The notes under the pieces are model-generated. The model ran no database searches. It was not told the DNA's origin and saw only the letters and a program-made list of their open reading frames with translations. A stretch of 64,000 bases of DNA from Myxococcota bacterium (GTDB taxonomy: Bacteria; Myxococcota_A; Bradymonadia; UBA4248): the NCBI GenBank assembly GCA_045599245.1, contig JAZRVP010000220.1, positions 590 through 64,589 of the forward strand. The letters are read 5' to 3'. A program made the position numbers and the translations under genes. Every line of letters starts with the position of its first letter. Position 1 is the first letter of the stretch. This document shows, one piece after another, positions 8,043-47,709 of the stretch.

Positions 8043-8115
8043 GGGGCTTTAGCTCAGCTGGGAGAGCGCATGACTGGCAGTCATGAGGTCACCGGTTCGA
8101 TCCCGATAAGCTCCA
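8043..8115 (+). tRNA. tRNA-Ala (anticodon GGC)
   Basis: 73-nt cloverleaf with acceptor GGGGCTT/AAGCTCC carrying the G3:U70 alanine identity pair. Also D-arm GCTCAGCTGGGAGAGC, anticodon stem CATGA/TCATG with loop CTGGCAG (anticodon GGC), T-loop GGTTCGATCC and discriminator A. CCA is not encoded. Confidence 0.85.
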
Positions 8116-8120
8116 TGTTT

Positions 8121-8193
8121 GGGGCTTTAGCTCAGCTGGGAGAGCGCATGACTGGCAGTCATGAGGTCACCGGTTCGATCCCGATAAGCTCCA
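8121..8193 (+). tRNA. tRNA-Ala (anticodon GGC), identical tandem copy
   Basis: Exact duplicate of 8043-8115, separated by a 5-nt spacer. Confidence 0.85.
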
Positions 8194-8198
8194 CTACA

Positions 8199-15008: not shown

Positions 15009-15299
15009 ATCTATATCTCCTTCAGGAGGAATGATGTCCACTACCGGACGATGAAATCCTCATATTTTGAAATATTAAATGGTGCCAATAAAATGGCCTA
15101 TTAGTATAGCAGATATTTGTGCTGACATCAATATCTGTTGGGTGCGCTTTGTTTACGATGAGAACCAAAAGAATATAATACTATTCTAAAATACCGTGGT
15201 GTATTTGAATAAAATTCAAAATATTTTTGTCATTGTAAATAATAATTAGTTTGCAAAAAATTGTATCTGGTCCTGACGAATGGTTTATGTCTATTCGTC

Positions 15300-17389: not shown

Positions 17390-17732
17390 AAATTTCCTCC
17401 GAAAAACTCACTTTTTTATTTTCGAATATTAATGATGACTGATTGCAAGACTGCGCAATTCAATTTTTGAGGGGCTAAAAAAAAGCTCTCATTGTGCATT
17501 ATATCCTAAATGCACACATAAAACTACACATAACCGCCAACTATTTTGTCAAAAATTCGGTGTGAGGGTGGGTTGTGGGGTGGAATTTGATTTTTCTGCA
17601 CACAATGTGGTTATTTTTGTTTTGATAGTGTGGTTTAAACGATTTTGATGTAGGAAATTCTACTCGAATGAGGTTTTGTTTGGGCACAGGGTGTGTGTCT
17701 TTCTTCATTTTAATTTACACAACGGAAACAGC

Positions 17733-23547: not shown

Positions 23548-25230
23548 TCAGAGCAGAGGAACGGGCTGGAGGTGCATGTCCTTGACACTGGGGTTGTTGA
23601 GGGAACCGCGAAGGGCGTCGAGAGTCAGCATGAAGATGCCGAAAGTGATATCGCCGTCGGGAGAGAGGCGGACGCTGGAGTTTGTGCTGGAACGGAGTTT
23701 GGAGAGTGCCGGCGAGATGTTCTGAAGGCGGACTTTATTAGAGATGATGTCGTCGCGGAGTTCGAGAACGGGTTCGCCATCCGGAGTGAGGATTAGGGGT
23801 TCTTCGCCGATGATTCTGCGCATGGTCATTTCGATGCGATTAATTTTGAGGTCGATAGTGACGAGATTGCATTCCGGGAAAGTGACCATTCCGTGATCCG
23901 GCCAGGCGCAAGGCATGACGTTGATCGTTGTGATGCCGTTATGGGTGACGCCTGCGATTTTGACGGGTCTTGAAGAGGTGCCGAAAGAGTACATGGTACG
24001 ATAAACGGCGGACATCGGGATGGTTTCATCGAAGAGGAAATAGATGGGTTTTCCCTGATTTTTTTCGTCGTTAAGAGCGGCTTTTTGCAGTTTTTCGATG
24101 AAAGCTGCGCCGGCGTTGATTTCGGCGAAGGATGCGATTTTCTTTTCGTCGTAGAAGACGCCGTCGGCTTTTGTGACGGCGACGATGGAACCGTCATGGA
24201 CGTTATCGCCGTCCAGAGGCATGAAGTTAGAGGAGAGGGCTTTGGAAGCGGCGACGATGTCGTCGAAAGTACGGACTTTTTCCGGAGTGTCCTCTGTGAT
24301 GATGTCACCATCTTCTGTGAACTGTGTTTCGGTTTTTTCGGGTTTATTGATGATATGAGCGGCGATGGGGGCTGCGATGATTGTGACGAGGAGGACCGAA
24401 CCGAGGATAATGAGATATCGGACGGGGATGGATTTAAAGAACTCGGTAACGGGATTGACTTTCTCGTGATAGAGGAGATGGATTTGTTTGATGTCGATTT
24501 CGCGAGTGATGCTTTCGTTATTTTCTGGAGCCATTGGATGGCCGATGACGACGGGATTTTGAGGGGCTCCCGGGCGTTTTGGAGCGGGAGAGGCGGGGGG
24601 CTGTTTTTGAGGAGCGCCGCCCCATGCGTTCCAGTCGTCGTCGGCTTGAGACTGAGTGTTTCGAGGGATTTGGGGAGGTCTTGAACCGGGTCGTTTCGGG
24701 ACGCCTGGTACGACGGATTGTTCGATGATGCCGGCACTTTCGTCATCCCAGGCCTGTCCGATGGCGATTGTTTTTTCACCGCTTTTTTCGTGATGAATGA
24801 CGGGTTCGTCCATTTCGAGAGGCTGGAGGAGGGCTTCAGTTTCCTTTGGTTTATCGGCGAGCTGGCTCCAGTCCTGGTTGGTTCCCCAACCGCCGGGCTG
24901 CTGTCCCCACTGGACGTCGTTTGGAGCTTGTCCCCACTGCTGGTTTTGAGCGGGCTGGTTCCACTGTTGGGCGTTCATGGCGGACTGATTCCACTGCGTT
25001 GGCGCAGGCTGCTGTCCCCACTGGGCGTCGTTTGGCTGCTGTCCCCACTGGGCATCGTTTGGCTGCTGTCCCCACTGGGCGTCAGGCTGTTGTCCCCATG
25101 CCTGAGGCGACTGATTTTGAGCGGGCACGAGTGGAATTTGGCACTGTTCGCAAACTCCGCCGCCGCTTTGGGCATAAATCTGGTCGTCCACAAAATATGT
25201 ACTTTGACACCGGCTGCACGTCAGAAACAT
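23548..25230 (-). CDS. Zinc-ribbon membrane protein with QW-rich tandem repeats
   Basis: N-terminal CxxC...CxxC zinc ribbon (CSRCQSTYFVDD...CEQCQ). Five QWGQQPNDA repeats. A single TM helix (YLIILGSVLLVTIIAAPIAAHII). C-terminal ~270-aa extracytoplasmic domain. Confidence 0.65.
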   Translation of the reverse strand: MFLTCSRCQSTYFVDDQIYAQSGGGVCEQCQIPLVPAQNQSPQAWGQQPDAQWGQQPNDAQWGQQPNDAQWGQQPAPTQWNQSAMNAQQWNQPAQNQQWGQAPNDVQWGQQPGGWGTNQDWSQLADKPKETEALLQPLEMDEPVIHHEKSGEKTIAIGQAWDDESAGIIEQSVVPGVPKRPGSRPPQIPRNTQSQADDDWNAWGGAPQKQPPASPAPKRPGAPQNPVVIGHPMAPENNESITREIDIKQIHLLYHEKVNPVTEFFKSIPVRYLIILGSVLLVTIIAAPIAAHIINKPEKTETQFTEDGDIITEDTPEKVRTFDDIVAASKALSSNFMPLDGDNVHDGSIVAVTKADGVFYDEKKIASFAEINAGAAFIEKLQKAALNDEKNQGKPIYFLFDETIPMSAVYRTMYSFGTSSRPVKIAGVTHNGITTINVMPCAWPDHGMVTFPECNLVTIDLKINRIEMTMRRIIGEEPLILTPDGEPVLELRDDIISNKVRLQNISPALSKLRSSTNSSVRLSPDGDITFGIFMLTLDALRGSLNNPSVKDMHLQPVPLL

Positions 25231-27465: not shown

Positions 27466-27494
27466 TTCGGAGGGATATTCCCGGAATTTTCTAA

Positions 27495-27525
27495 TAAAAA
27501 AAGCGCCTTTTGGCGCTTTTTTTAT
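27495..27525 (+). terminator. Rho-independent terminator
   Basis: AGCGCC-TTTT-GGCGCT followed by T7. Confidence 0.75.
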
Positions 27526-27580
27526 ACATACAAAGTGTTTTTATTCTGTTTCAGAAACGAGCCATCATCCGGAAAAGACC

Positions 27581-31981: not shown

Positions 31982-32797
31982 ATGCGAAAGCTAATTGGAA
32001 TGATATTAGGCTTGAGTGTATTGATGCCGGGATTTTGTTATGGAGAAACGGTATCGTCCTGGCGCACGGATCGAGGGGTTGTGAGGGATCACAACGAAGA
32101 CAGTGTAAAGGTATTTGGAGAGCATGAAGTATATGTTGTAGCGGACGGTATGGGAGGACATGCGGCGGGGGAGGTTGCGAGTGCGATAGCAGTAGAAACG
32201 GTAGAGGATTATGTGAAGTTTCCGGTCTGGGAAAAGGTGAAAAGGGTGTGGCCGCAGGCGGGTTTGATATTTATGGGGGCGTCATTTTTCGAGGCGAATC
32301 GGCGGATTTTAGAGGATGCGTCGTTGAATCCGGCAAGGCACGGGATGGGAACGACGATGGTATTGCTGGTGATGAGGAAAGGGTATGTGGATATCATCAA
32401 TGTTGGGGATTCGAGGGCGTATGTTCTGCACGACAAGAAGTTGATACGCGTGTCAGTGGATCAGTCGTTATTGACGGAATATATCAAGGCGGGTGTTATC
32501 AAGACGCAGGCGGAAGTGGATGCGTTTCCGTACAAGAATGTGATAACGCAGGCGTTGGGGACGCAGCCGCAGATAGTACCGGATGTGTATACGCGAGAGA
32601 AGGAAGCAGGGGATGTGTATTTATTGAGCAGTGACGGGTTATTTGATGAATTGAGGGATGAGGAGATAGAGGGGATTATTTTGAAACATGGGGAAGACTA
32701 TGAAGGAGCGAGTGAGGAGCTGGTAGAAAAGGCGAAATTGAGAGGAGGGCATGACAATATCACGGTAGTTCTTGTTAAAATGGGTTCAAGTATTTGA
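31982..32797 (+). CDS. PP2C-family Ser/Thr protein phosphatase
   Basis: PP2C motifs: DRGVVRDHNEDS, VVADGMGGHAAGEVAS, GTTMV, NVGDSRAYV, LLSSDGLFD, and a C-terminal GGHDNITVV. Confidence 0.85.
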   Translation: MRKLIGMILGLSVLMPGFCYGETVSSWRTDRGVVRDHNEDSVKVFGEHEVYVVADGMGGHAAGEVASAIAVETVEDYVKFPVWEKVKRVWPQAGLIFMGASFFEANRRILEDASLNPARHGMGTTMVLLVMRKGYVDIINVGDSRAYVLHDKKLIRVSVDQSLLTEYIKAGVIKTQAEVDAFPYKNVITQALGTQPQIVPDVYTREKEAGDVYLLSSDGLFDELRDEEIEGIILKHGEDYEGASEELVEKAKLRGGHDNITVVLVKMGSSI

Positions 32798-32881
32798 CCA
32801 GTTTTGAGTAGCCTGTTATAACGGCGAATTCTGAATAGGGGATAAACCTCTGTCGTAAGTTTGAAAGGAGCGCAAAGAACC

Positions 32882-33145
32882 GTGAAAATTCGCATGTTTT
32901 TTGTGACAGCATTAATATTAAGTACGAGCGTGAGTATTTCTGTTTATGGGGAAGAGAGCGCGGGTTCAGTAGAAGAGAAGCTGTACAATTTTGACGACAT
33001 GCTGATAGACGGAGCGTTTCGTGATCCTCAGGGGATGTTTGAACGAGCGCGAACGGAGGCAGAATTTGAAAGTGTATTGAAACTGGAGCGAAGTTTTATT
33101 CGCCGAATAGAAGACAATACACAAGAGTCATCAATGCGGCCGTAG
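32882..33145 (+). CDS. Small secreted hypothetical protein
   Basis: GTG start 32882 lies ~9 nt downstream of SD AAAGGAGCG. Signal peptide MKIRMFFVTALILSTSVSISVYG. No homology recognised. Confidence 0.4.
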   Translation: MKIRMFFVTALILSTSVSISVYGEESAGSVEEKLYNFDDMLIDGAFRDPQGMFERARTEAEFESVLKLERSFIRRIEDNTQESSMRP

Positions 33146-33179
33146 CGAGAAGCGTCGCGTCGGAAAAGGGAGTGGATAT

Positions 33180-34817
33180 ATGAAGATCATATGCAGTGGC
33201 TGTGGAGCAAAACATTGGCTTTCGGATATGCAACTGTCCGATGGAGGCTGCAATGTAGTATGTCCACACTGTCAGACGACGAATTTTGCGGATGCCTCGA
33301 TGGTGGATCCGGCCTCATTGGAACCGCGGTGGTATTATGCGGTGAATGAAGAGTCGGTAGGACCGCTTTCGACGCGAGATCTGGAATTTGCATTTCAGAA
33401 TGGCCAGCTGACGCTGGATTCGTATGTATGGTGTGATGGTTTATCAGACTGGATGGCGTTAGGAGCTGTACCGGAGTTTGACTATCTGGTATCGCCGGTT
33501 CAGGGGACGCCAGCGGGCCTGGATGAAGCGACGCGAGTTGCGGGCACGGGAGGACGAGGATTTGCGTCGTATCCTGGGCCGGGTTCGTTTGGACGAGGCG
33601 GGGATGAGACGTCAGCACTGGACATGAGCGGGAATGGATTTAGTCCGTTTGACAATGCGTCGTCCGGGATTGTTGGCATGGATGGTCAGGAAGCGAAAGA
33701 TGACGAGCCCATGTTCAACATGGGAATGTCGCAGCCTGCGTCGGCGGCGAACAATATGGTAGGTGGAGCGCGCAGTGAGAATTCGGTTTTGTTTTCGCTG
33801 AGCAGTCTTCAGGCCGTGAGTGCGGCGAGTGCGAGTCCGTCGGTACCGACGACGGCGGGAGGAGATGCGGGATTTGTGGATGTGAAGGCACTTGCCTCTG
33901 CATCGCCGGCGCCGCGCCGTCGCAACGAAGTGGTTGACAGCTTTGGCGGGAGTGCCGTTCCGATGGCGACCGTTCTTCCGTTGGGGAACAAGAAAGACAA
34001 CACGATGCTGGTCGCCATTCTGGTTGGCATTGGTGTTCTTGTTGTCGTTATGGGTGTGGTATTGGCGGTTGTTTTGACGAGGGATACGTCAGCGCCGGCT
34101 GCACAGCAGGCAGCGAACGTTGATACGGACAAAGCGCAGGCTGCAGCGAATGATTTAGGTGTTGCGCCGGCAGCGGTAGCGGACAACACGCAGATCGTGG
34201 ATAAGAATAAGCAGGCCGAAGAAGAAGCCGCGAAGAAGAAAGCGGAAGAAGAAGAAGCTGCGAAGAAGGCCGAGGAAGAGAAGCAGGCCGAAGAAGAAGC
34301 CGCGAAGAAGAAAGCGGAAGAAGAAGAAGCCGCGAAGAAGGCCGAAGAAGAAGAAGCTGCGAAGAAGGCCGAGGAAGAGAAGAAAGCCGCAGCCGACACG
34401 AAGAAAGCTGACACGAAGAAAGCTGACACGAAGACTGAGACGAAGACTGAGACGAAGAAAGCCGCAGCCGACACGAAGAAAGCCGACACGAAGAAAGCCG
34501 ACACGAAGAAGGCCGATGCAAAACCGGCGGCGGCAGCTGGCGGCGGTGCAAGCCTGAGCAAAGCCGAAGTTCAGGGTGTCATTCGTGGTATTGGAGCTCA
34601 GGTCAGAACCTGCAGCCGTACGTCGGCAACGAAGGGTACGATGAAAGTGTCGTTCAACATCAAGGGGGATGGCCGAGTGAGCAATGCTCGTGTCGTTTCG
34701 CCGGAATTTGCGAATACGCCGACGGCATCGTGTGTATTGAAAGTTGTCAACGGAATGAAATTCCGTGCGACAGGCGGAGCCGATGTTCCCATCACGTATC
34801 CGTTTGCAATCCAATAA
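33180..34817 (+). CDS. Zinc-ribbon / GYF-like domain membrane protein with K/E-rich coiled-coil repeats and a Cys-pair C-terminal beta-domain (AgmX/GltJ-like architecture)
   Basis: N-terminal CxxC..CxxC zinc ribbon (CSGCGAKHW...CPHCQ). GYF-like segment RWYYAVNEESVGPLSTRDLEFAFQNGQLTLDSYVWCDGLSDWMALGAVPEF. TM helix LVAILVGIGVLVVVMGVVLAVVL. (AEEEAAKKK)n and (DTKKA)n tandem repeats. A C-terminal ~95-aa domain with two conserved Cys. The architecture resembles myxobacterial AgmX/GltJ. This is a family-level inference only. Confidence 0.7.
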   Translation: MKIICSGCGAKHWLSDMQLSDGGCNVVCPHCQTTNFADASMVDPASLEPRWYYAVNEESVGPLSTRDLEFAFQNGQLTLDSYVWCDGLSDWMALGAVPEFDYLVSPVQGTPAGLDEATRVAGTGGRGFASYPGPGSFGRGGDETSALDMSGNGFSPFDNASSGIVGMDGQEAKDDEPMFNMGMSQPASAANNMVGGARSENSVLFSLSSLQAVSAASASPSVPTTAGGDAGFVDVKALASASPAPRRRNEVVDSFGGSAVPMATVLPLGNKKDNTMLVAILVGIGVLVVVMGVVLAVVLTRDTSAPAAQQAANVDTDKAQAAANDLGVAPAAVADNTQIVDKNKQAEEEAAKKKAEEEEAAKKAEEEKQAEEEAAKKKAEEEEAAKKAEEEEAAKKAEEEKKAAADTKKADTKKADTKTETKTETKKAAADTKKADTKKADTKKADAKPAAAAGGGASLSKAEVQGVIRGIGAQVRTCSRTSATKGTMKVSFNIKGDGRVSNARVVSPEFANTPTASCVLKVVNGMKFRATGGADVPITYPFAIQ

Positions 34818-34835
34818 TTGGATGCAGGAGATTTA

Positions 34836-34861
34836 CCCGGGCCTTTGGCCCGGTTTTTTTT
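34836..34861 (+). terminator. Rho-independent terminator
   Basis: CCCGGGCC-TTT-GGCCCGG followed by T8. Confidence 0.75.
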
Positions 34862-34867
34862 GCGCCG

Positions 34868-34943
34868 TGTCGGCGCATTCGATGCGTATTCCGAAGGAAT
34901 AGCGTCGAATCAATGCAGGCGTATTGGCCGAAGGCCGATAGCC
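34868..34943. repeat. Cluster of REP-like palindromes (GCGTATTCCGAAGGAATAGCG; GCGTATTGGCCGAAGGCCGATAGCC)
   Basis: Same GCGTATyGGC...GCCGATAGC family as 11587-11645 and 19465-19522. Confidence 0.6.
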
Positions 34944-35079
34944 TGTGCGGTTTTGGGGTGTATTCGGGGCATCGAGATGCGCCGAATAGCCCCATCATCA
35001 AACGTCTGTCATTTTGCCATTGTTCTCATTTGGTGATAGAGACCGGAAGCAGGATTGTTTCTTTGTCAGAGAGAAAGTG

Positions 35080-37446
35080 ATGGATACGTTTGAACAGGAA
35101 AAATACATATATCCGAACGGTACGATCATCGCGGATCGGTTTGAAATTTTGTCGTTTCTGGCGTCAGGGGGTATGGCGGATGTTTATATCGCGAAGCAGC
35201 TGACGATGGATCGCGAGGTGGCGTTGAAGGTATTGCTTCCGGCATTTTCGTGTAATCAGGATGTCAAGATGAGATTTCATCGCGAGGTGGAGGTAGTCTC
35301 GAAGCTGCAGCACCCGAATACGATACAATTTTTTGATCGTGGCGAGACGGCGGAGGAGCCGCCGCGTTTGTTTATCGCGATGGAGCTGTTAAGGGGAGAG
35401 GAGCTTGGGGAGCGGATCAAACGAGGGGTGATGAGTGCGCAGGAGGTTTTGCCGATTGTGAGGCAGGTTGCGGAGAGCCTTGCGGATGCGCATGCGCACG
35501 GGATAATTCATCGGGATTTGAAGCCGGACAACATCTATTTGACGACATATAACGGCGTGAAGGTGTTGGATTTCGGGATAGCGAAGGTATTGAATGGAGA
35601 AGAGACCCGGGAGGAGGGATCGGAACGAGGGCGTCGCCTGACGAAGGCGGGCACGGCGCCCGGGACGCCGGAGTATATGAGTCCGGAGCAGGCTCGCGGA
35701 AAAGATGTGGACGGCCGGAGCGATTTGTATTCGCTTGGTTGCGTGATGTACGAGATGCTTTGCGGGCGACCGCCGTTTGAGGAGTCGACGTATCTGGCGA
35801 CGATATTGATGCAGGTTCAGGCAGCGCCGCCGGCACTTCCCGCGACCGTTCCGGATTTTGTGAGCGAGTATGTGATCAAGAAGTTATTGGCGAAAGACCC
35901 GAGCCAGCGTCCGTCGAGTGCGCAGGAGTTTATCCGGGATGTGGATGAACTGATGAAGAGGCTGAAGCCGGGGAAGACGGCGGAGGAGATGCAGGCGGAA
36001 ATAGAGCAGCTAAGGAACAAGCTGGCGCAGGCGAATCTGGAGCTGATGCGTTCTGGGGATATGTCTGTATTGACGGACAATGAAGTGACGCGGATAAGGC
36101 CGGTTCCGAGTCGGGCGCCTGTTGGGAGCACGTGTGTAAGCGTGAACACGGGTGATGGCAGTGTAAATGTCGAGAATCCTGTGTGTCGAGGCGGGGGAGT
36201 GAATGCAGGAGGCGTGTGGCAGGGTGGCCAGACGGGGCCTGTACAGGTTCGTCAGCCGATGCGGGTGATGCCCGGCAGTCTGGACAATAGTGATTTGGAG
36301 CGCGTTCCTGTACGAGGACGAGGCGTGAAGCCTTCGATGCCTGGGGCGTCAGCAGGCAGTGAATATGAAGGGGAACGCATTCCGGTTCGGAGCCGCAATG
36401 GGATGTCGCTGGCTGGGATGCAGGCGATGTCGAATGGGTATGAGTCAGATGTTGTTTCCGGTCGAAGCCGCAGCATGATGTCGCCGGTTCCGTCGCAGGC
36501 GATACCGAATGGATATGATCCGGATGTTCCGGTCCGGAGCCGAAGTGTGATGCCATCGATGCCTGGAATGCAGGCGATATCGAATGGATATGAGCCGGAT
36601 GTTCCGGTTCGAGGCCGCAGTTCGATGCCATCAATGCCCGTGATGCAGCCGATGCCGAATGGATATGATGAGGAGCGGGTTCCGGGTCGGAGTCGGGGAA
36701 TGATGCCGTCAGTTCCGGTGCAGCCGATGCCGAATGGATATGAAGAGGAGCGAGTTCCTGTGCGGAGTCGGGGGATGATGCCGTCAGTTCCGGTGCAGCC
36801 GATGCCGAATGGATATGAGAAGGAGCGTATTTCGGGCCGGAGTCGCAGCTCGATGCCTGGGATGCCCGGGATGCCGTCGAAGGGCGGGATGGAATATGGA
36901 AGTGGTCAGGATGTGCGCGAGCGTGTATTGCCGACGATGGGATATTTTGAGTCGGAGGAGGAGGCGGTTCCTGCGCCGCGACATGGCCAGCGGTCGGCAA
37001 GTACGCGAGAGCGGTATGGTGCGGCGGCGGATCAGATCGAAGAGAACGGAGGCGTCCATGGGGGGCGTCCGAGGAATGTGTTGACGGGAACGCAGATGAG
37101 GAAGGGAGGCGGTCGTACGTTAGGCGTTGGGGGGCAGACGACGGCGACGCGAGAGTATATTTTTATGATGTTTTCGCAGTTAGTGACGAGTAAATTAGGG
37201 CCGGAGAAACTGACGGAGGCATTGGAGTTATCGAAGAGTGTATGGAATGCGGCCGTGATTGGGAAAGAAGCGACGGATGTGTTGTACCAGTCAGCGGGAG
37301 TGCAGACGAATTTGAGAAAGTTGATAGAGGCGATGGTAAACTGGAAGGAGAATTATTTCAGGGATGAGAAGTGGTCGATAGAGAGTGTGAAGAGTCGAGT
37401 GGATTCGTCAGGCCGAATGGAACTGACGTTGGAGACGAGTGAATAG
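35080..37446 (+). CDS. Ser/Thr protein kinase with C-terminal tandem-repeat region
   Basis: Hanks-type kinase motifs: GGMADVY (Gly loop), VALK, HRDLKPDNIYL, DFGIAKV, GTPEYMSPE. Start ATG 35080. Residues ~440-620 hold ~8 degenerate 25-28-aa repeats (MPNGYEEERVPVRSRGMMPSVPVQP), followed by a ~110-aa C-terminal domain. No TM segment. Confidence 0.85.
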   Translation: MDTFEQEKYIYPNGTIIADRFEILSFLASGGMADVYIAKQLTMDREVALKVLLPAFSCNQDVKMRFHREVEVVSKLQHPNTIQFFDRGETAEEPPRLFIAMELLRGEELGERIKRGVMSAQEVLPIVRQVAESLADAHAHGIIHRDLKPDNIYLTTYNGVKVLDFGIAKVLNGEETREEGSERGRRLTKAGTAPGTPEYMSPEQARGKDVDGRSDLYSLGCVMYEMLCGRPPFEESTYLATILMQVQAAPPALPATVPDFVSEYVIKKLLAKDPSQRPSSAQEFIRDVDELMKRLKPGKTAEEMQAEIEQLRNKLAQANLELMRSGDMSVLTDNEVTRIRPVPSRAPVGSTCVSVNTGDGSVNVENPVCRGGGVNAGGVWQGGQTGPVQVRQPMRVMPGSLDNSDLERVPVRGRGVKPSMPGASAGSEYEGERIPVRSRNGMSLAGMQAMSNGYESDVVSGRSRSMMSPVPSQAIPNGYDPDVPVRSRSVMPSMPGMQAISNGYEPDVPVRGRSSMPSMPVMQPMPNGYDEERVPGRSRGMMPSVPVQPMPNGYEEERVPVRSRGMMPSVPVQPMPNGYEKERISGRSRSSMPGMPGMPSKGGMEYGSGQDVRERVLPTMGYFESEEEAVPAPRHGQRSASTRERYGAAADQIEENGGVHGGRPRNVLTGTQMRKGGGRTLGVGGQTTATREYIFMMFSQLVTSKLGPEKLTEALELSKSVWNAAVIGKEATDVLYQSAGVQTNLRKLIEAMVNWKENYFRDEKWSIESVKSRVDSSGRMELTLETSE

Positions 37447-37448
37447 GG

Positions 37449-37585
37449 AGTTACTACATAGTTGGGGCTTTGCTCCGAAACTCGCCGGGGTCTCTCTCCC
37501 GGCTCTCATCAATCTCTGCCTAAAAATTGCGAAATACGCCCTATTCAATAGAGATATATGAATTAACCCTGGCTGAGCAGTAAAG
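37449..37585 (+). repeat. Copy D of the mosaic intergenic repeat (short form)
   Basis: GAGTTACTACATAG..GGGGCTTTGCTCC..CTCATCAATCTCTGCCTAAAAATTGCGAAATACGCCCTATTCAATAGAGATATATGAATTAACCCTGGCTGAGCAGTAAAG. It ends ~100 bp before the 37686 start. Confidence 0.75.
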
Positions 37586-37685
37586 TATTTGAGTAGAAAA
37601 AGGCAAGAATGGGTGGTAAAGAATTGGAGAAACATGTTAAAATTGATGTGCTGAAATTTTGACGCATCATGAGGAGGATAGAGCG

Positions 37686-38555
37686 ATGCCATCGAGTTTG
37701 AACGACTCATTTAATAATCTTTCAAGATCGAGCAGTGATGTAGCGAGAATCCGTCGAGGGGCGAAAGGGCGTCCGGGCGCGGAGAGTGCGAAGAATCTGT
37801 TGGGCAGTATTCTGGATGATACGACGGAAGCGGCGGAGACAGAGCGTGTAGTCCGCGAAGAGAACGCGAAGCGTGCGGAAGAGGAAGCGCAGCGCCAGAA
37901 AGAGATGGCGGAAGAAGATGCGCGACTTCAGGCGGAACGGGAAATTATTGCGGAGAAGCAGGCGCAGGAAGATTTGAAGCTTCATCAGGCGGAGATGCAG
38001 GCGCAGCTGCAGCGTGAAAAGGATATCGAAGCCGGGATAATCAATCTTGAGGAAGAGGCTCGTCAGAAGCGAGAAGAAGAAGAGCGTCAGAGAGCGAAAG
38101 AAGAGGCGATCAAGCGCAAGACGGAAGCGAAGCTGCAGGCGATTGAGTTCAAGAAGAACCAGGAAACGGAACTTGAAGCGTTGCGTCAGGAGCAGCTAGC
38201 GAAAGAGGCGCAGCCGAAGAAATCGAATATGCCGAAGATTATTGCGGCGGCGGCAGCAGTTGTCATAGCGGGCGTTGTGGGATTAGTTTTTGCGTTGAAT
38301 CAGGAAGTGATCGATCCGTATGCGATGGGTGACGAAAAGAGTTATGAGACGCAAAGCATATCGTTTGTGAATGAAGACAACGGGATGATGAGTATTGCGA
38401 GGAATCTGGTTGTTCAGGCGCCGCCACCCAAGCCTGTGGCGAAGAAGAGCGGAGGCGGGAAGAAGAAAGGCGGCGGTGCAGCGCCGGCGGCGCCGATGCC
38501 GAAGCCGAGTCTGACCGGTGGAAAAGGTGGACTTTTTGGCAAAGGTAAGCTGTAA
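37686..38555 (+). CDS. Coiled-coil (E/K/R/Q-rich) single-pass membrane protein, Gly/Lys-rich C-terminus
   Basis: ATG 37686 follows the strong SD GAGGAGGA. ~170 aa of charged heptad-like sequence, then TM IIAAAAAVVIAGVVGLVFAL, then a C-terminal KKSGGGKKKGGGAAPAAP tail. A hairpin terminator lies at 38585-38615. Confidence 0.6.
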   Translation: MPSSLNDSFNNLSRSSSDVARIRRGAKGRPGAESAKNLLGSILDDTTEAAETERVVREENAKRAEEEAQRQKEMAEEDARLQAEREIIAEKQAQEDLKLHQAEMQAQLQREKDIEAGIINLEEEARQKREEEERQRAKEEAIKRKTEAKLQAIEFKKNQETELEALRQEQLAKEAQPKKSNMPKIIAAAAAVVIAGVVGLVFALNQEVIDPYAMGDEKSYETQSISFVNEDNGMMSIARNLVVQAPPPKPVAKKSGGGKKKGGGAAPAAPMPKPSLTGGKGGLFGKGKL

Positions 38556-38627: not shown

Positions 38628-40790
38628 ATGAAGAAAAGGTTTTCGGCAATCGTCTTGTCGTTGATGTTGAGTGCGATGGGAGTATCGCAGATTGGGTGTG
38701 TTGAAGCGGATGAACTTCCGACGGAACCGAATCAGCCGGGTATTGTTTTGACGACGAATGTACAGGACTGGCGCGATGAAGTGATATACCAGCTGATCGT
38801 TGATCGATTTAACAACGGCGATATCAACAATGACTATAACGTCGATACGCGGTCGATGGCGCGTTATCACGGAGGTGACTGGCAGGGGATTATCGACAAA
38901 CTCGATTATCTTCAGGACTTGGGGGTGACGACGTTGTGGATTTCGCCGCCGGTCAAGAACGTCGAAGAAGATGCGGGATTTGCATCGTATCACGGTTACT
39001 GGACGGTGGATTTCATCAAGCATAATCCGCACTTTGGAGATTTGGCGACGTTGCGGCGTCTGTCGGATGAACTGCATAAACGCGGGATGAAACTGATTCT
39101 CGATATTGTGACGAATCACGTTGGTCAGGTGTTTTTCTATGACATCAACATGAACGGGAGTGTCGAGGACTGGCTTGCCGGACGCGGGGATATTGATCGA
39201 GGATCGAATCGTACGGAGGCAGGAGAACTGAGCCGGGTGACGGAATACGATCCGGATTTTGATGCCCACGGAATAGATGCGTACACGAGCATGGGTATAT
39301 CGGGACAGGCACCGGCGGTATTTTTTGATATGCCGAATATCAACCGTATGGCGCCGGGGCCGAAGAATCTCGATTTGGATGGCGATGGCAAGATCACGAC
39401 GCCGGTGGAGAAGATGGGATTTTCGAATCCGAATTGGTACCATCAGCGCGGACGAACGTATTTTTATGGGAATGCGGCGCAGTCGTGTACTGAATTTTCG
39501 ACGGATAGGGATAAGGTCAAAAATGGGTGTACGAACTACGGGTCTGGGACGCCGACGTGCGGTGTGACGCATCAGTTGACGAATTATGACGGCACATCGG
39601 GCGGTTATCTCGATGGGACGGCGCGTATGTATTGTCAGAATGATCAGACGTTGCTGGGCGATTTCCCGGGCGGTCTGAAAGACGTGGCGACCGAGCGCGA
39701 GGATGTCCGCAAGGCGATGATCGAGGTGTTTTCGTACTGGATCGATGTGACGGACTGCGATGGTTTCCGCATTGATACATTAAAACATGTGGAATACTCG
39801 TTCTGGGAAGTCTTTGCTGCAGGTATCCGTGAACATGCCGCGAAACGAGGGAAAAAGAATTTCCTGATGTTTGGAGAGGCGTTTGACGGAAGCGATATTT
39901 TGCTCAAGAGCTATGTCGAGGATCCGAATTCTGTGGATTCAGTATTTTTGTTCTCACAGAAGTACGCGATTGATCAGTCGATCAAGTGTCCGCCGGGCAA
40001 TAGTGCGCCGTACTGCAAGAGCATGGACAATTCAGAGAACGGGACGAGTCCGTTGTATGGCTGGGATTACACGTGGTCAACGGGAGGCCGTCATGCACTC
40101 TTTAGCAATGAACCGAGGATAAACGGTGTGACGGACAGCCAGGGCAAGGGGGTTGCACCGCGCGATCTTCTCGTGAACTTCCTGGACAATCACGACGTGG
40201 GTCGATACCTGTTCGATCGAAGCGATGCGAAGGGGGTTGATTCATTAAAGAATGCGTTGTCATTCCTGATTTTACAGCGTGGTATACCGTGTATTTATTA
40301 CGGTACGGAACAGGGATATATGGGCGGGAACGATCCCGGCAACCGTGAGGATATGTGGGATCGAACGGCATCGTATTTTGTGAAAAATCCCGGTGTATAT
40401 GACAACTATGAAGCCTGGGATACGGGCAATCCGTTATATACCCATATCAAGAATCTGCTTCGCGTGAGGAAAGCGGTACCGGCACTTCGCCGAGGTGCGG
40501 TGAATGATGCGGTATGGCATTCAGGTGAGACGTCGGGGACAGAAGCTGGTATCTATGCGTTTTCGCGGACGTATGAAAACAGTTCTGCACTTATCGTTGT
40601 GAATACGCACGAGAGTCAGACGAGCAGCGGAAACGGGATGCAGGTTCCGTGGAGCAGTTCAACGCTGGTTGATTTGCTCGATCCGACGTACACAGCAACG
40701 GTTTCGGGTGGTCAGGTGAGTTTCAGTGTACCGCCGATGACGACGAGAATTCTCGTTCCGCAGGAAGACAAGGCGTCATACGGATTGTAA
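38628..40790 (+). CDS. GH13 alpha-amylase-family lipoprotein
   Basis: Lipoprotein signal MKKRFSAIVLSLMLSAMGVSQIGC. GH13 conserved regions DIVTNHV, GFRIDTLKHV, GEAFDG and FLDNHDVGR, with the catalytic Asp/Glu/Asp in the expected motifs. Confidence 0.85.
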   Translation: MKKRFSAIVLSLMLSAMGVSQIGCVEADELPTEPNQPGIVLTTNVQDWRDEVIYQLIVDRFNNGDINNDYNVDTRSMARYHGGDWQGIIDKLDYLQDLGVTTLWISPPVKNVEEDAGFASYHGYWTVDFIKHNPHFGDLATLRRLSDELHKRGMKLILDIVTNHVGQVFFYDINMNGSVEDWLAGRGDIDRGSNRTEAGELSRVTEYDPDFDAHGIDAYTSMGISGQAPAVFFDMPNINRMAPGPKNLDLDGDGKITTPVEKMGFSNPNWYHQRGRTYFYGNAAQSCTEFSTDRDKVKNGCTNYGSGTPTCGVTHQLTNYDGTSGGYLDGTARMYCQNDQTLLGDFPGGLKDVATEREDVRKAMIEVFSYWIDVTDCDGFRIDTLKHVEYSFWEVFAAGIREHAAKRGKKNFLMFGEAFDGSDILLKSYVEDPNSVDSVFLFSQKYAIDQSIKCPPGNSAPYCKSMDNSENGTSPLYGWDYTWSTGGRHALFSNEPRINGVTDSQGKGVAPRDLLVNFLDNHDVGRYLFDRSDAKGVDSLKNALSFLILQRGIPCIYYGTEQGYMGGNDPGNREDMWDRTASYFVKNPGVYDNYEAWDTGNPLYTHIKNLLRVRKAVPALRRGAVNDAVWHSGETSGTEAGIYAFSRTYENSSALIVVNTHESQTSSGNGMQVPWSSSTLVDLLDPTYTATVSGGQVSFSVPPMTTRILVPQEDKASYGL

Positions 40791-40850
40791 TAATTTATAA
40801 ATATATTTATGAGGAAATGGCTATGCGTTTTGCGCATACGCCATGGATGG

Positions 40851-40888
40851 AGCCGGGCTATGCAGAGCATACGCCCGGCTTTTTTTTT
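40851..40888 (+). terminator. Rho-independent terminator (preceded by a GCATACGC-type hairpin)
   Basis: GCCGGGC...GCCCGGC stem followed by T9. An upstream hairpin GGCTATGCG-TTTT-GCGCATACGCC lies at 40819-40842. Confidence 0.75.
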
Positions 40889-40972
40889 GGTGATTTGGAA
40901 TAAAATCGCTAAAATGAAAGGGGCTGGGCTTGAGTTGTCCGGCCTTTTGAACAGCTAAAAAAGGATGATGAA

Positions 40973-43900
40973 ATGAGAAACGGGAAAGTAGCCATTATTT
41001 GTGTGATATCATCACTTTTTGCAATGCAGTGTACGTTGGAATATCACGATTTGGGGATTGATTGTGAAGGCGTTCAGAGCATTCAGCTTTCGAGTGGCGG
41101 TGTTTGTTTGCCGGATGTATGTACGGGCTGTTCAAAAGATGACGAACAAAGCTGCAGTTCCTATAAAACAGAGGGAGCGTTTGCCCAAAATCGTTGTCCG
41201 CATGATTTTATGTGTACGACACTCGCGAATGGTAATGGTGCAAACTTCTGTATGCATAAGACAAAAGAGAGAGCATGTGGTGTTGATTTGCCCTATTTGT
41301 GCGGTGATTCGAAGAAATGTGCTTCAAGTTGTTCAAAATGTGAGGATAACGAAGAGTGCTATCTCATTATTAATATAGGGAATGACAAGAAGTCAGGTGC
41401 GAAAGAAGGGGCAGAGCAGGAGTGCAATATTGGTCAGCGCGAATGCAGTGAAGCCGGGAAGCTTCGTTTGTGCACCGCAGGTTCCTGGGAGACGATTGAT
41501 TGCGAGTCGGGGTGCAGTGATGGGAAATGTTTAGATGTGAGTGAGAGTGAATGTGAAGACGGTAAGCGCCGTTGTGAAGGGGATAAAGAGACACAGGCGT
41601 GTCAGGATGGGGAATGGAAGACGACGGGAACATGTCAGCGCGGATGTCTGGATGGGGAATGTACAGAAGAAAGCGACCCGGGTAAAAGTGGAGACGAGAA
41701 AGACGATGGGGGCGAAGACGATGGGGGCGATGAGAAAGGGGATGGCGGTGACAGTGGCGAAAAAGGTGAGACGGGATGCGGTGAAGGGGATGTTGGGTGC
41801 AATGGAGAAACTGTTGTAGAAATATGTCAATCTAAAGAATGGAAGAAGTTGAGTGAATGTGGTGAAAATCAAATATGCAGTGAAGGAGAATGTGTATTAC
41901 GAGAGGAAGTTGAGGACGGGAAATGTGAGAATAAGTTGAGGAGATGTCAGAATGATGTACCCCAGGAATGTGTAGAGGAAACGTGGGTAAGTGAAACGAA
42001 GTGCATGTATGGATGTGAAGATGGGTTTTGCAACGAGGAATGGATAGGCAAGGCGTGTGAAGAGAGCAGCTATCAGCAGACATGTATTAATGGAGGCATT
42101 CATGCGTTGGTGTGTGAGAATGGCGTGATTCGGAAACACCGATGTGCAGATGGGAATTGTTCTGTCAATCCGTCGAATCCACTTGAAATGATATGTCAGG
42201 AAGGATGTACGGCGGATTCCAAAGGGGAATGTGCTCCGGCATGTAATGCGGATGGGACGAAAGGGTATTATTGGAATCATACCAAATCGCCTGCATCGTT
42301 TGATTGTCCGAATGCGGATTGCAGAGTTGTGGATGGATTTGTGAGCTGTGGCCAGGAAAGCTGCAGTGCCAAGAGTAAGAATCGATGTATTCCGGCGTGT
42401 AGTGCGGATAAGAAAACGGGCTACTACATGAACGGTTCAAATAATATCAAGGCGAAGTCATGTCCCAATGGCGATTGTGTGTCGTACAAGGGGAATATTT
42501 ATTGCGGTATGCCGGAGGCGTGCACACGAGAGACGTACGAGCCGGAATGTACAGAAGATGGTACCGGGACGTATTGTTCAGCCGATGAAATTGTGAAGAC
42601 GTGGGGTTGCGGTGGTGGAGAAAAATGCCAGCTTCGGTTTGATGGAAGCTGTGATTTGTCGAGCCGATGTATTGATGGAAAGTACAATGTATCGGAATAT
42701 CCGAAAGGATTTATCGATTGTGTGAAAAATGATGAGTCGAAGGTTCCGGAGACTTGTAATCCGGAGCAAGACAAAGCGATGTGTGAGAATGGTCATGTGT
42801 ATGTATGTGGACAAAATGGTCGATATTATTTGAAAGAAACATGCAGTGCAAATCAGCGGTGTGAAGAAGGCCAATGCATCTATGAGAGCGTCCCGGAAAG
42901 CTGTAAATACGGCGAATCGGAGGCGATATGTGCAGGAGAGAGCAAGAACGAGCTTTATGTATGCGGGAATGACAATAAATATTACAAGAAGGTCGTTTGT
43001 CCGGATAGTCAGCCATGCAGAGTGAATAAAGGGTGGGGGCAGTGCATTGATGAATCGATACCGAAGGCGTGTGTGAAAGGAGATCCGGCCAAATGTGTGG
43101 GTTTGGATTTATATGTATGTTCGAAAGATGGATATTATTATTTAAAAGAAACGTGCAGTGAAACGAATCCATGTTTTGAGTCGAACGGATATGGCGGGTG
43201 TGAAGGGGCAGTTCTTCCCAATGGAGCGTTGTCGGATTGTGTATATGAAGGTGAGGGGGCGTCACCGGCGTTGTGTCTTGGTGAAGATAATTTGGACTTA
43301 TATGTTTGTGGTCAGAGCAATCGATATTATAAGAAAGAGCGATGTCCTGAGGGGACGGTGTGTCGTGTGAGCAATGGGTTTGGTCAATGTATTCCGCCGG
43401 AAGTTCCGGAAAGCTGTAAATATGGCAATTCGAATGTTATTTGTGCGGGGAATGCTATCTATGAATGCGGCAGGAATAATTGGTATTTGAAACATGAAGT
43501 ATGTGATGAGGGTGAAACATGTACCATTCATTCAACGGGAAAATCGGCCAGTTGTTTGAAAGCCGGAGTTCCGGGAGAATGCACAAATAGTGTTCATGCG
43601 ATATGTCAGGGACAGGATGTGTATGTTTGCGGGAAAAATGGCTGGTATTATTTGAACAAAACCTGTGCAGAGGGGGCAACGTGCAGTATTTCGGCATCAG
43701 GATTTGGTGACTGTCGTCTGTTTCCGTCTGATGTCAGTGGAACGTGCAGTATAGCCAAGTGTTCAACTGTTGATAAGAATGCGTATTTTTGTGATACCGA
43801 ATCGCATACCTATTATTTTGATATAGCTCATGGCACATGCAGTGAGGACAAACCGTGCAAGGTTTGCGGGAACGGGTATGCGGGCTGTGGCATCACGTGT

Positions 43901-44287: not shown

Positions 44288-44316
44288 TGAAAGAACGCAG
44301 ACAAGGGATAAATATA

Positions 44317-47595: not shown

Positions 47596-47709
47596 AAGTG
47601 CCGGTATTACTTGCGAATGCAAGTTATTTGGTACGGCACTGTGTCTTGAAGTGCCAATATAATAAAATTCATCACAATGGCTGTTTAACAAAACGAGGCA
47701 AAGGCGGAA

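Follow-up and report, generated by a model that had tools for sequence, protein, structure and literature searches.

The window, the whole 64,000-nucleotide stretch of DNA analyzed here, comes from an uncultured gut/rumen member of the Myxococcota, the phylum to which GltJ belongs. A preliminary description of this DNA had placed five co-directional genes in a single module, and all five forward-strand open reading frames (5/5) were confirmed at their coordinates, with domains assigned by profile matches. As that description had also noted, none of the five proteins carries an FHA or receiver domain in searches with Pfam and NCBIfam profiles. The genes and features of the locus are as follows:

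31982..32797, forward strand: PP2C (Stp1-like) Ser/Thr phosphatase (Pfam PP2C_2 and PP2C, NCBIfam Stp1)
32861..33145, forward strand: F, small exported GltF/CglF-like protein (NCBIfam CglF match)
33180..34817, forward strand: J, GltJ/AgmX-family bitopic inner-membrane protein of 545 aa (profile, PDB and fold matches)
34837..34861, forward strand: intrinsic terminator-like hairpin, CCGGGCC-TTT-GGCCCGG followed by T8 (terminator scan)
35014..37446, forward strand: soluble Hanks-type Ser/Thr kinase (Pkinase and PknB-type profiles)
37659..38555, forward strand: CC298, bitopic coiled-coil membrane protein with one TM (residues 194–212)
23548..25230, reverse strand: second protein, with CxxC...CxxC at the N-terminus, repeats rich in Q/W, one TM and a C-terminal domain of 265 aa

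J and F Form a Diverged GltJ-GltF Pair

J belongs to the GltJ/AgmX family, and its architecture holds at the level of sequence, profile and fold. From the N-terminus to the C-terminus, its parts are as follows:

Residues 1–34: zinc ribbon (ZnR), followed by a fixed 19-aa spacer and then GYF
Residues 51–100: GYF domain
Residues 121–271: disordered region with the invariant motif G-x-R-x-ENSVLFSLS-x-x-L and GLIDVKAL
Residues 275–300 (280–298 by TM prediction): single TM helix
Residues 342–399: K/E helix, plus T/K repeats
Residues 456–545: TonB-C-like domain with a conserved Cys pair

J scored 55 bits against GYF_2 (cut-off 25.8), 52 bits against the AgmX/PglI C-terminal domain NF033768 (cut-off 40), and 29.3 bits against Zn_ribbon_4, slightly below the cut-off of 30.3; tandem K/E repeats were also found. 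The GltJ model, which has a cut-off of 450, reached 84 bits but was still the best named model. The two best PDB matches of the J family profile were both GltJ domains: 7z3c, the GYF domain (E = 1e-6 when J alone was the query, 1e-15 for the family profile), and 7zok, the ZnR (E = 5e-11 with the family profile). An AF2 model of J displays three confident folded domains, with pLDDT values of 85–96 for residues 1–115 and 93–96 for residues 456–545, and Foldseek ranked the GYF domain of GltJ and C-terminal domains of TonB highest. These profile, PDB and fold matches bear out the GYF assignment and the AgmX/GltJ-like architecture first proposed for the central protein. Across 106 homologues, the Cys pair (C478 and C518) is invariant, and W51, G61, P62, W84 and W91 of the GYF domain are among the other invariant residues; in bacterial GYF domains, the most conserved residues lie on the PRS-binding beta-sheet (PMC11135422).

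The nearest known protein is GltJ (AgmX, MXAN_4862) of the Myxococcus xanthus Agl-Glt gliding, or bacterial focal-adhesion, machinery. Both proteins have an N-terminal MJ0042-type zinc ribbon, a GYF domain, a disordered region and a single TM, followed in the periplasm by a long unstructured or helical spacer and a TonB-C-like C-terminal domain, and both are encoded next to a GltF-like gene. J differs in length (545 versus 674 aa), in its diverged ZnR, where the basic KVFKIRCKKC surface of GltJ is replaced by GGCNVVCPHC, and in the linker between ZnR and GYF, which is 19 aa rather than the ∼95 aa of M. xanthus GltJ (PMC11135422), so that J lacks an equivalent of the MglA-GTP/ZnR-binding linker motif (L86-T107). 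Elsewhere in the J family this spacer ranges from 23 to 158 aa. The ZnR-GYF “switch” modules likewise place contiguous ZnR and GYF domains at the N-terminus of a membrane protein, in the cytoplasm, but their linker is flexible and variable, whereas the spacer of J is short and of fixed length; such modules are predicted to have ligands beyond MglA and AglZ and to pass signals from one side of the membrane to the other (Attia et al. 2024, PMC11135422). Like TonB and TolA, J is bitopic, and its extended spacer in the periplasm precedes a C-terminal domain of TonB-C-like fold. Unlike them, it has no His in the TM helix (no motif of the SHLS type) and carries a large ZnR-GYF domain on the cytoplasmic side, and genes for ExbBD, TolQR or AglRQS are missing from its vicinity. 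In published modeling, GltJ made no contact with the AglRQS motor (PMC11761067).

F is a 94-aa open reading frame with a likely start at GTG 32882, and it comprises a signal peptide, the invariant motif K-x-Y-x-F-x-D-M-L-I-D-G and a C-terminal helix. The copy in the window matched the NCBIfam CglF model weakly (E = 1.6e-4), and two copies scanned singly scored 22–30 bits, far under the equivalog cut-off of 90. Among F-family members, 15 of 16 matched this model (best E = 8.4e-10), which was the sole family match save for the match of one member to a pentapeptide-repeat model. CglF is GltF (PMC4488436; PMC3169522), and F and GltF (CglF, MXAN_4868) are both small secreted proteins encoded in the same cluster as J or GltJ, respectively. 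F always lies directly 5′ of J, Bradymonadales-type glt clusters included; unlike GltF, it is found here immediately 5′ of J with no GltG or GltC nearby.

The Phosphatase Is Probably Periplasmic and the Kinase Is Soluble

The PP2C protein matched PF13672 at 52 bits and the NCBIfam Stp1/IreP model at 224 bits (cut-off 230), and its catalytic motifs are intact. Its N-terminus has the form of a Sec-type signal peptide that looks cleavable, MRKLIGMILGLSVLMPGFCYG|E, with a hydrophobic h-region of only 13 aa. In all 11 aligned orthologues (11/11), the features of the signal peptide, namely an M-[KR]-rich n-region, a hydrophobic core of 12–16 aa and small residues at −3/−1, are kept while the underlying sequence varies. 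A strong SD sequence, AGGAAGGAG, sits 6 nt before the upstream ATG, and no alternative start codon occurs between this ATG and the catalytic motif. A search of 1.84 billion representative proteins found signal peptides only in the three closest PP2C clusters and one more, and the nearest cytoplasmic PP2Cs have no N-terminal extension. Judged by sequence rules together with this conservation, the phosphatase is probably exported, and its predicted location is the periplasm.

The likely start of the kinase is ATG 35080, although the open reading frame begins at TTG 35014. The kinase scored 158 bits against Pkinase and 279 bits against a PknB-type kinase domain, and all catalytic motifs are present. 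Numbered from TTG 35014, the kinase domain spans residues 45–304 and is followed by a short coiled coil, ∼330 aa of tandem repeats rich in Pro, Met and Gly, whose unit is 25 aa long (75-nt repeats in the DNA), and an orphan C-terminal domain of ∼105 aa. The model of this last domain (four helices and a beta hairpin, pLDDT 78–95) had no fold match in the PDB. The tail evolves fast: all kinase orthologues have a tail of 280–560 aa with 10–19% Pro and the conserved proline motifs E-x-[IV]-[VP]-P-x-P-R-[HRF] and [SG]-[RQ]-P-[RK]-x-x-[LMI]-T-G, and the repeat unit R-x-x-MP-x-x-P varies, occurring in only 3–4 of 7 orthologues. One word-index search with the tail, of limited sensitivity, returned just two fragments from close relatives.

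The kinase contains no signal peptide, TM or hydrophobic segment. The phosphatase and the kinase are thus predicted to lie across the inner membrane from each other, and, because the Sec-type signal peptide is present in the PP2C and in all of its orthologues, the phosphatase is probably not the cytoplasmic partner of the kinase, contrary to the initial proposal that the two form a pair. Gene pairs of the stp-stk type are common in bacteria, and Stp1/Stk1 pairs (PrpC/PrkC, PstP/PknB) are the closest families to the two catalytic domains. Here, however, the phosphatase has a signal peptide, the kinase lacks TM and PASTA domains and is soluble, and their genes are split by two genes and a terminator.

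A Conserved Terminator Separates PP2C-F-J from the Kinase

The terminator-like hairpin lies 20 nt past the stop codon of J and consists of a 7-bp all-GC stem followed by T8. A GC-rich hairpin with a T-run occurs at the same position after J in all 11 close relatives (L001, L003, L005, L006, L007, L009, L010, L011, L012 and L028 among them), with a stem sequence that differs in each. The hairpin is predicted to close a PP2C-F-J transcription unit in which PP2C is the first gene, and the kinase is a separate transcription unit. The short gaps originally reported need qualification: counted from the start codons that are probably the true ones, neighboring genes lie 84 nt (PP2C-F), 34 nt (F-J), 262 nt (J-kinase) and 239 nt (kinase-CC298) apart. 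Because a terminator of conserved position divides J from the kinase, the five genes are not one operon; together with the restriction of CC298 to three loci, this argues against the single five-gene module.

The order PP2C-F-J is kept in 13/13 related loci, and the kinase follows J in 11 of the 12 that could be evaluated; synteny is thus conserved in related genomes. The sublineage L001/L002 has PP2C-F-J with no adjacent kinase. In the J tree, the PP2C-F-J-kinase loci are monophyletic, with loci containing F-J only as sister groups. The genes 5′ of PP2C differ among loci (polA, ATP synthase genes, BamD and Sua5; the ATP synthase genes were assigned by reading ORF N-termini), which indicates that it is the block that has been kept. 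Loci of Bradymonadales type, L004 and others like it, show the order OMP-OMP-GltC-TPR1144-GltE-F-J, and this is the ancestral context. F-J lies outside a gltC/D/E context and is co-transcribed behind PP2C in the window clade only; J is thus found outside a gltD-I cluster, unlike GltJ, with a PP2C that is predicted to be exported in its unit and a Hanks kinase next to it.

At its core, the locus encodes a diverged GltF-GltJ (CglF-AgmX) pair from an uncultured lineage of host-gut Myxococcota, and PP2C-F-J with its predicted exported PP2C is a variation on the known GltF-GltJ system and no novel type of system. The earlier suggestion of a complex not described for this lineage does not stand, since GltJ and GltF are native to the Myxococcota (PMC3169522) and 431 stretches in a collection of 185,579 species genomes encode relatives. 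GltJ and GltF have been listed as confined to Myxococcales and Bdellovibrionales (Luciano et al. 2011, PMC3169522).

A Proposed Model for J as an Adaptor

The best explanation of the locus as a whole, which we favor by somewhat more than an even chance, is a diverged F-J pair with an exported PP2C, in which J acts as an adaptor that recruits the separately transcribed kinase. J would serve as a trans-envelope adaptor or signal relay, with its periplasmic TonB-C-like domain and F contacting an envelope partner. F may join the C-terminal domain of J, possibly via beta-strand addition, by analogy with published models in which M. xanthus GltF adds a beta-strand to the TonB-C-like domain of GltG (PMC11761067). 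On the cytoplasmic side, the GYF domain could dock the proline-rich tail of the kinase, much as the GYF domain of M. xanthus GltJ recruits a proline-rich segment in AglZ; a kinase with such a tail is absent as a candidate ZnR-GYF ligand from Attia et al. 2024 (PMC11135422). Once recruited, the kinase might phosphorylate cytoplasmic targets, such as the Ser/Thr-rich invariant motif of J, while the exported PP2C would work on the periplasmic side as more than a plain kinase antagonist. Since the ZnR has diverged and the long linker is missing, kinase-based input may have replaced the MglA/MglB switch of M. xanthus GltJ. Weighing against the model are the varying repeat unit of the kinase tail, the lack of an adjacent kinase in L001/L002, and the terminator, which keeps the kinase out of the transcription unit of J.

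Three alternatives were weighed against this adaptor model. The one that survives best, though we consider it unlikely, holds that PP2C-F-J is the sole functional unit and that the kinase, CC298 and the amylase gene are neighbors by descent in related genomes. The terminator and the 262-nt and 239-nt gaps, separate ribosome-binding sites, the presence of CC298 and amylase in three loci only, and the missing kinase in L001/L002 all favor it, and Hanks kinases are very numerous in the Myxococcota (PMC2887360), which makes chance adjacency easier. Yet the kinase stays directly 3′ of J even though J orthologues are 43–70% identical and the outer flanks differ, and its orthologues share the PRS tail, the two proline motifs and the orphan C-terminal domain.

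Rather improbable is a complete Agl-Glt gliding machine whose remainder is encoded elsewhere in the genome and whose gliding is regulated by the kinase and phosphatase. The family membership of J and F, the gltB/A-gltC-gltD-like-gltE-F-J clusters of relatives in Bradymonadales-type MAGs, and the partial CglD and weak GltE matches in the window are consistent with it. Against it, no homologue of GltA/B/C/D/E/G/H/I/K, AglRQS, MglA/B or AglZ was detected in the 64-kb window, and tblastn searches with Bradymonadales-type cluster proteins as queries were negative in 284 kb (window plus related loci); a motility or secretion context, as first proposed, thus finds no other glt, agl or mgl gene in this sequence. 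The strongly diverged ZnR, the reduction of the ∼95-aa MglA-GTP-binding linker of M. xanthus to a fixed 19 aa (PMC11135422), and the wide miss of the GltJ equivalog cut-off also speak against it. So do HydF, which we take to be the [FeFe]-hydrogenase maturase, and starch-degrading genes, which suggest an anaerobic gut lifestyle.

Least probable of all is a single operon encoding a classical Stp1/Stk1-type pair, in which a cytoplasmic PP2C and the kinase reversibly phosphorylate J or its partners: the scores on the Stp1/IreP and Stk1/PknB-type models, the PP2C and kinase genes flanking F-J in 11/12 related loci, and the Ser/Thr-rich cytoplasmic motif of J are countered by signal-peptide features kept in every aligned PP2C orthologue despite an unconserved sequence, an upstream ATG with a strong SD and no later start before the catalytic motif, closest cytoplasmic PP2Cs without the extension, a kinase without an export signal, and the conserved terminator.

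Other Genes of the Window

CC298 has a likely start at ATG 37686, preceded by the SD sequence AGGAGG, and the 239-nt gap before it is AT-rich. Its only matches were below cut-off (NCBIfam TolA, 23.9 bits; Pfam ATAD3_N, 16.4 bits). Only L005, L011 and L012 have it after the kinase, always together with the amylase, and it is absent in L003 and L085–L087; its association with the locus is loose, and it probably forms a transcription unit of its own with the gene for the lipoprotein alpha-amylase downstream. The reverse-strand protein at 23548–25230 had been described as a second ZnR-TM-periplasmic protein. The CxxC...CxxC N-terminus and single TM are present, but profile searches gave no family match, and the similarity to the J zinc ribbon is weak and confined to the first 37 residues. 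Elsewhere in the window, one protein gave a partial CglD match (128 bits, cut-off 400) and a TPR protein a weak GltE match.

A GltJ-like and GltF-like protein pair in a phosphatase-kinase locus

The five plus-strand ORFs placed between 31982 and 38555 by the preliminary description are present as described, and their domains were confirmed by Pfam and NCBIfam scans and by hydropathy analysis. The gaps between them are less short than stated there, measuring 84, 34, 262, and 239 nt when the likely true starts are used. The genes are as follows:

31982–32797, + strand: PP2C phosphatase
32861–33145, + strand: F, a small GltF/CglF-like ORF
33180–34817, + strand: J, a 545-aa GltJ/AgmX-like protein
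35014–37446, + strand: Hanks kinase
37659–38555, + strand: CC298, a coiled-coil protein with one TM helix (residues 194–212 by hydropathy)

Neither an FHA nor a receiver domain occurs in the module, as initially noted, and an Rfam scan of the window returned three tRNAs only; neither a riboswitch nor a leader was detected around the module. The K/E region of J and the kinase tail are both built on tandem repeats.

At the level of architecture, J is a member of the GltJ/AgmX family, with a zinc ribbon (ZnR), a GYF domain, a TM helix followed by a spacer, and a C-terminal domain. The four ZnR cysteines (C5, C8, C28, and C31, in a CxxC...CxxC arrangement) are nearly invariant across the family, and the ribbon scores just below the Pfam Zn_ribbon_4 cut-off (29.3 versus 30.3 bits). 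The GYF and AgmX-like assignments of the preliminary description hold up in profile searches: the GYF domain matches PF14237 (GYF_2) with 55 bits, and the C-terminal domain matches NF033768 (AgmX/PglI) with 52.2 bits against a cut-off of 40. Residues W51, G61, P62, W84, and W91 of the GYF domain are invariant in 106 sequences. In the PDB, the single J sequence is closest to an NMR structure, 7z3c, determined for the GYF domain of M. xanthus GltJ (E = 1e-6), and a family profile of 16 sequences ranks the GltJ GYF domain (1e-15) and the GltJ ZnR (7zok, 5e-11) ahead of TonB C-terminal domains. The GltJ model (NF033761) outscores every other named NCBIfam model on J, with 84.2 bits over model positions 148–670, a value far short of the equivalog cut-off of 450.

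The AF2 model of J, built on 106 homologues, comprises a ZnR+GYF region (residues 1–115, pLDDT 85–96), a disordered stretch (121–271), a TM helix (275–300), a long helix (342–399), and the C-terminal domain (456–545, pLDDT 93–96). A Foldseek search with this model returned 7z3c first and then TonB/FusB C-terminal domains, including 6sly, which has also been published as a structural match for GltJ (PMC11761067). From the sequence, in which hydropathy reveals a single hydrophobic segment (residues 280–298), we infer an N-in topology with a long periplasmic spacer.

The juxtamembrane residues 196–240 of J (33765–33900 of the window) include two sequences, G-x-R-x-E-N-S-V-L-F-S-L-S-x-x-L and, about 25 residues further on, G-L-I-D-[VI]-[KR]-A-L, that are invariant or nearly so in 106 GltJ-family proteins with 25% identity otherwise. 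The GltJ literature examined gives this segment no function. Because it falls in the region modeled as disordered, it is a candidate short linear motif, possibly a partner-binding site or a phospho-acceptor.

F, which adjoins J, consists of a signal peptide, an invariant K-x-Y-x-F-x-D-M-L-I-D-G, and a conserved helix. The CglF model (NF033764) is matched by 15 of 16 F family members (best E = 8.4e-10), the sole other family match in the set being that of one member to a pentapeptide-repeat model; the scores of F on NF033764 (21.7 and 30.5 bits, in two copies) are far under the equivalog cut-off of 90. CglF is the same protein as GltF (PMC4488436; PMC3169522). Taken together, the profile, PDB, and fold matches of J and the CglF matches of F indicate a GltJ-like/GltF-like pair.

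The association with PP2C and kinase is specific to a gut clade

J homologues come from metagenome-assembled genomes (MAGs). The closest, with 50–70% identity, derive from samples of the gut or rumen of goat, buffalo, roe deer, and cattle and from “Myxococcales bacterium UBA4248”; the next is from a Bradymonadales MAG (41% identity), and remoter ones (∼25–30%) occur in Bradymonadales, Polyangia, and other Myxococcota. Relatives of J are encoded in 431 stretches of a collection of 185,579 species genomes, and Luciano et al. 2011 (PMC3169522) count gltF and gltJ among those genes that occur only in Myxococcales and Bdellovibrionales. GltJ/AgmX proteins are therefore native to the Myxococcota, contrary to the earlier suggestion that such a complex is not described for this lineage.

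The window also encodes several starch-degrading enzymes and HydF (17676–18959, + strand), the [FeFe]-hydrogenase maturation GTPase. Together with the gut or rumen origin of the relatives, these genes suggest that the source organism is an anaerobic, host-associated member of the Myxococcota. A search of the literature on gut and rumen Myxococcota found nothing specific; the locus adds functional detail on this uncultured, apparently anaerobic branch.

Related genomes preserve the gene order, which in the gut clade is PP2C-F-J-kinase: PP2C is found in 13/13 distinct loci with enough upstream sequence, and the kinase in 11 of 12 evaluable loci, missing only in L001/L002. CC298 and a lipoprotein amylase follow the kinase only in L005, L011, and L012, and the genes 5′ of PP2C vary (polA in the window; apparent ATP synthase genes, BamD, or Sua5 elsewhere). 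Four Bradymonadales-type MAG loci (L004, L017, L019, and L042) carry the order OMP-OMP-GltC-(1144-aa TPR)-GltE-F-J, a compact glt cluster, and three others (L013, L016, and L018) carry the F-J pair alone. In a neighbour-joining tree of J, the PP2C/kinase loci are monophyletic and the F-J-only loci form successive sister groups. This monophyly, and the retention of PP2C and kinase while the flanks differ, identify the association as a clade-specific acquisition that was kept as J diverged to ∼43% identity.

Neither the 64-kb window nor 284 kb of related loci yielded a gene for GltA-E, GltG-I, GltK, AglRQS, MglA/B, or AglZ, the only related signals in the window being the weak GltE-like TPR match and the partial CglD-like match described below, and tblastn searches of the window and 17 related loci with the Bradymonadales-type OMPs, GltC, the 1144-aa TPR protein, and GltE found only F. 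A complete gliding machine may be encoded elsewhere in the genome. The TM segment of J, ILVGIGVLVVVMGVVLAVV, differs from those of TonB and TolA in having no SHLS-type histidine, and no window ORF scanned matches the MotA/TolQ/ExbB or ExbD/TolR families. A TM helix without histidine and the absence of motor genes nearby agree with published modelling, in which GltJ makes no contact with AglRQS (PMC11761067).

The ZnR-GYF region of J is altered at the site of the Myxococcus switch

Recent work showed that the ZnR-linker-GYF module of GltJ ties the Myxococcus gliding motor to the cytoplasmic polarity switch, and its authors predicted other ligands for ZnR-GYF modules elsewhere. In M. xanthus GltJ, the ZnR (residues 1–42) and the GYF domain (138–222) are joined by a linker of ∼95 residues that holds an MglA-GTP/ZnR-binding motif; the linker binds MglA-GTP, while the GYF domain binds a proline-rich segment of AglZ via a conserved beta-sheet (PMC11135422). 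J has no long flexible linker with such a motif. Of the 25 clade members aligned, 24 have 19 aa between C31 and W51 and one (P0022) has 10 aa, compared to a ZnR-GYF spacer of 23–158 aa elsewhere in the family. The clade ZnR itself has diverged (CSGCGAKHWLSDMQLSDGGCNVVCPHC versus the family-typical C-x-SCGAKYSIADEKV-x-GKVFKIRCKKC). Judged from these alignments, J of the gut clade is altered at the very site where the M. xanthus switch operates. The clade thereby offers a natural experiment, in which the scaffold and its GltF-like partner persist outside the glt cluster and without the MglA-binding linker. This scaffold now adjoins a Hanks kinase with a proline-rich tail behind a PP2C predicted to be exported, which provides testable candidates for an alternative ligand of the GYF domain.

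The kinase is probably transcribed separately and carries a proline-rich tail

A terminator scan located a 7-bp all-GC hairpin followed by T8 at 20 nt past the J stop codon. A GC-rich hairpin and T-run occupy the same place in 10/10 close relatives examined, with a different stem sequence each time. Because this terminator-like hairpin follows J and is kept in the relatives, PP2C, F, and J appear to form one transcription unit and the kinase to belong to another, rather than all being part of the single operon originally envisaged.

The kinase is a soluble enzyme, with matches to Pkinase (158 bits) and to a PknB/Stk1-like kinase domain (279 bits), all catalytic motifs present, and no TM helix. 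Each orthologue carries a tail of 280–560 aa that is rich in proline (10–19%) and methionine (6–13%) and is composed of tandem repeats whose unit varies between species. Two short motifs that contain proline are conserved in 8/8 orthologues just before the C-terminal domain, E-x-[IV]-[VP]-P-x-P-R-[HRF] and [SG]-[RQ]-P-[RK]-x-x-[LMI]-T-G. The C-terminal domain (∼105 aa) is also conserved; its model, based on a thin alignment of three sequences, shows four helices and a beta hairpin (pLDDT 78–95) with no significant Foldseek match in the PDB (best E = 0.16), and a homologue search with this region retrieved two fragments only. A small gene after J in L001, which has no kinase, and in L087 was considered as a free-standing version of this domain and was rejected when neither BLASTP nor an HMM of seven orthologues gave a match. 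Nor is L087 kinase-less, as the kinase is present there and was simply not called as a gene.

PP2C carries a predicted signal peptide

PP2C matches PF13672 (52 bits) and approaches the cut-off of the Stp1/IreP model (224 versus 230 bits), with all metal-binding motifs intact. Upstream of its ATG (31982) stands AGGAAGGAG, and the stretch from this ATG to the first catalytic motif contains no other start codon. In 11/11 aligned orthologues, the N terminus consists of a basic n-region, a hydrophobic core of 12–16 residues, and small residues at −3/−1 (cleavage sites such as CYG|E, ALA|Q, AMA|A, CFA|Q, and AAA|K). The signal region is itself unconserved in sequence, low-complexity linkers precede the catalytic domain in some orthologues, and hydropathy gives a hydrophobic stretch shorter than a TM helix requires. 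Based on these sequence rules and their conservation, PP2C is predicted to be exported to the periplasm. A search of 1.84 billion representative proteins showed the signal only in the three closest clusters and one other, the next matches being ordinary Stp1-like enzymes that start 5–10 residues before the catalytic domain; one signal-bearing representative again lies in the order Sua5|PP2C-F-J.

The predicted location sets the pair apart from Stp1/Stk1, in which phosphatase and kinase share a compartment: the Sec-type signal peptide is conserved on PP2C, and none is found on the kinase, which argues against the cytoplasmic pairing first put forward. Co-transcription, the other hallmark of Stp1/Stk1, is also not expected here given the predicted terminator between J and the kinase. 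No description of periplasmic PP2Cs was found in the literature searched; such an enzyme, if confirmed, would be unusual for diderm bacteria.

A proposed model for J as a trans-envelope adaptor

The initial interpretation of the module is sustained in its GltJ-like call and its conserved synteny, and is replaced with respect to novelty for the lineage, a cytoplasmic phosphatase-kinase pair, and a single operon. What makes the locus interesting is its rewired ZnR-GYF adaptor, the candidate for a new GYF ligand, and a PP2C of a rare kind, predicted to be periplasmic. We propose that J would act as a trans-envelope adaptor. With the GYF surface kept, the linker lost, and a proline-tailed kinase as the conserved neighbour, it is most economical to propose that the kinase tail would serve as the GYF ligand and that J would bring the kinase to the membrane. 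In the periplasm, the TonB-C-like domain of J may receive an additional strand from F; strand addition has been modelled for GltF-GltG (PMC11761067). The exported PP2C would likewise act in the periplasm.

A further-reaching version, which we regard as rather unlikely, holds that PP2C is a true periplasmic Ser/Thr phosphatase acting on periplasmic parts of J or F or on a partner, with the kinase docked on the GYF domain, such that the J relay would be phospho-controlled on the cytoplasmic as well as the periplasmic face of the inner membrane. A candidate target of the phosphatase is the J spacer with its Thr/Lys-rich repeats. If true, this would amount to extracytoplasmic PP2C signalling in a diderm combined with a kinase-based replacement of the MglA/MglB/AglZ switch of myxobacterial focal adhesions.

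Other features of the window

Outside the module, we noted the following:

2–4276, − strand: protein of >1425 aa, truncated, with a Met-zincin (DUF4953) signature
8042–8194, + strand: tRNA-Ala(GGC), two tandem copies 4 nt apart
11718–15041, − strand: 1107-aa protein with a partial CglD match
23548–25230, − strand: ZnR-TM protein
25996–29005, + strand: 489-aa signal-peptide protein, followed by a 474-aa TPR protein
38628–49347, + strand: starch/glycogen-related gene run

The ZnR-TM protein at 23548–25230 has the architecture assigned to it by the preliminary description, and we do not count it as part of the module: it has no family match, its ZnR alignment is weak (37 columns, probability 30%), and its gene shows no synteny with that of J elsewhere. 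About six copies of a Trp/Gln-rich repeat, WGQQPNDAQ, lie between its zinc ribbon and TM helix (residues 40–120), and its periplasmic domain of 265 aa has no family match.

The 1107-aa protein matches the gliding adhesin CglD in five stretches (128 bits versus a cut-off of 400); it also contains DUF11, a TSP3 repeat, and Cys-rich acidic repeats of the myxobacterial type. This protein may be an adhesin like CglD, or it may have no more than the repeats in common with it. The 489-aa protein ends in ...LRLMY, as is typical of outer-membrane beta-barrels; the 474-aa TPR protein, just 5′ of polA, has a signal peptide, a C-terminal TM helix, and a weak GltE match (22.8 bits). Neither gene adjoins F-J in relatives.

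The starch/glycogen-related run encodes a lipoprotein alpha-amylase (720 aa), a 1104-aa protein without known function, a CBM48 and alpha-amylase protein (1102 aa), and a DUF6273 protein; in L005, L011, and L012 the first of these amylases occurs in synteny with CC298. The protein at 2–4276 is 44% identical to a 1580-aa protein of L003 (15345–20087) encoded directly 3′ of the kinase, and thus the same gene lies 31 kb away here and adjoins the module in L003. Finally, the plus-strand GC skew, (G−C)/(G+C), reaches 0.25–0.36 over more than 20 kb and is strongest at 26000–50000 (profile over 1–64000); nearly all genes of the high-skew region are on the plus strand, and the skew is unusually high for a bacterial chromosome.
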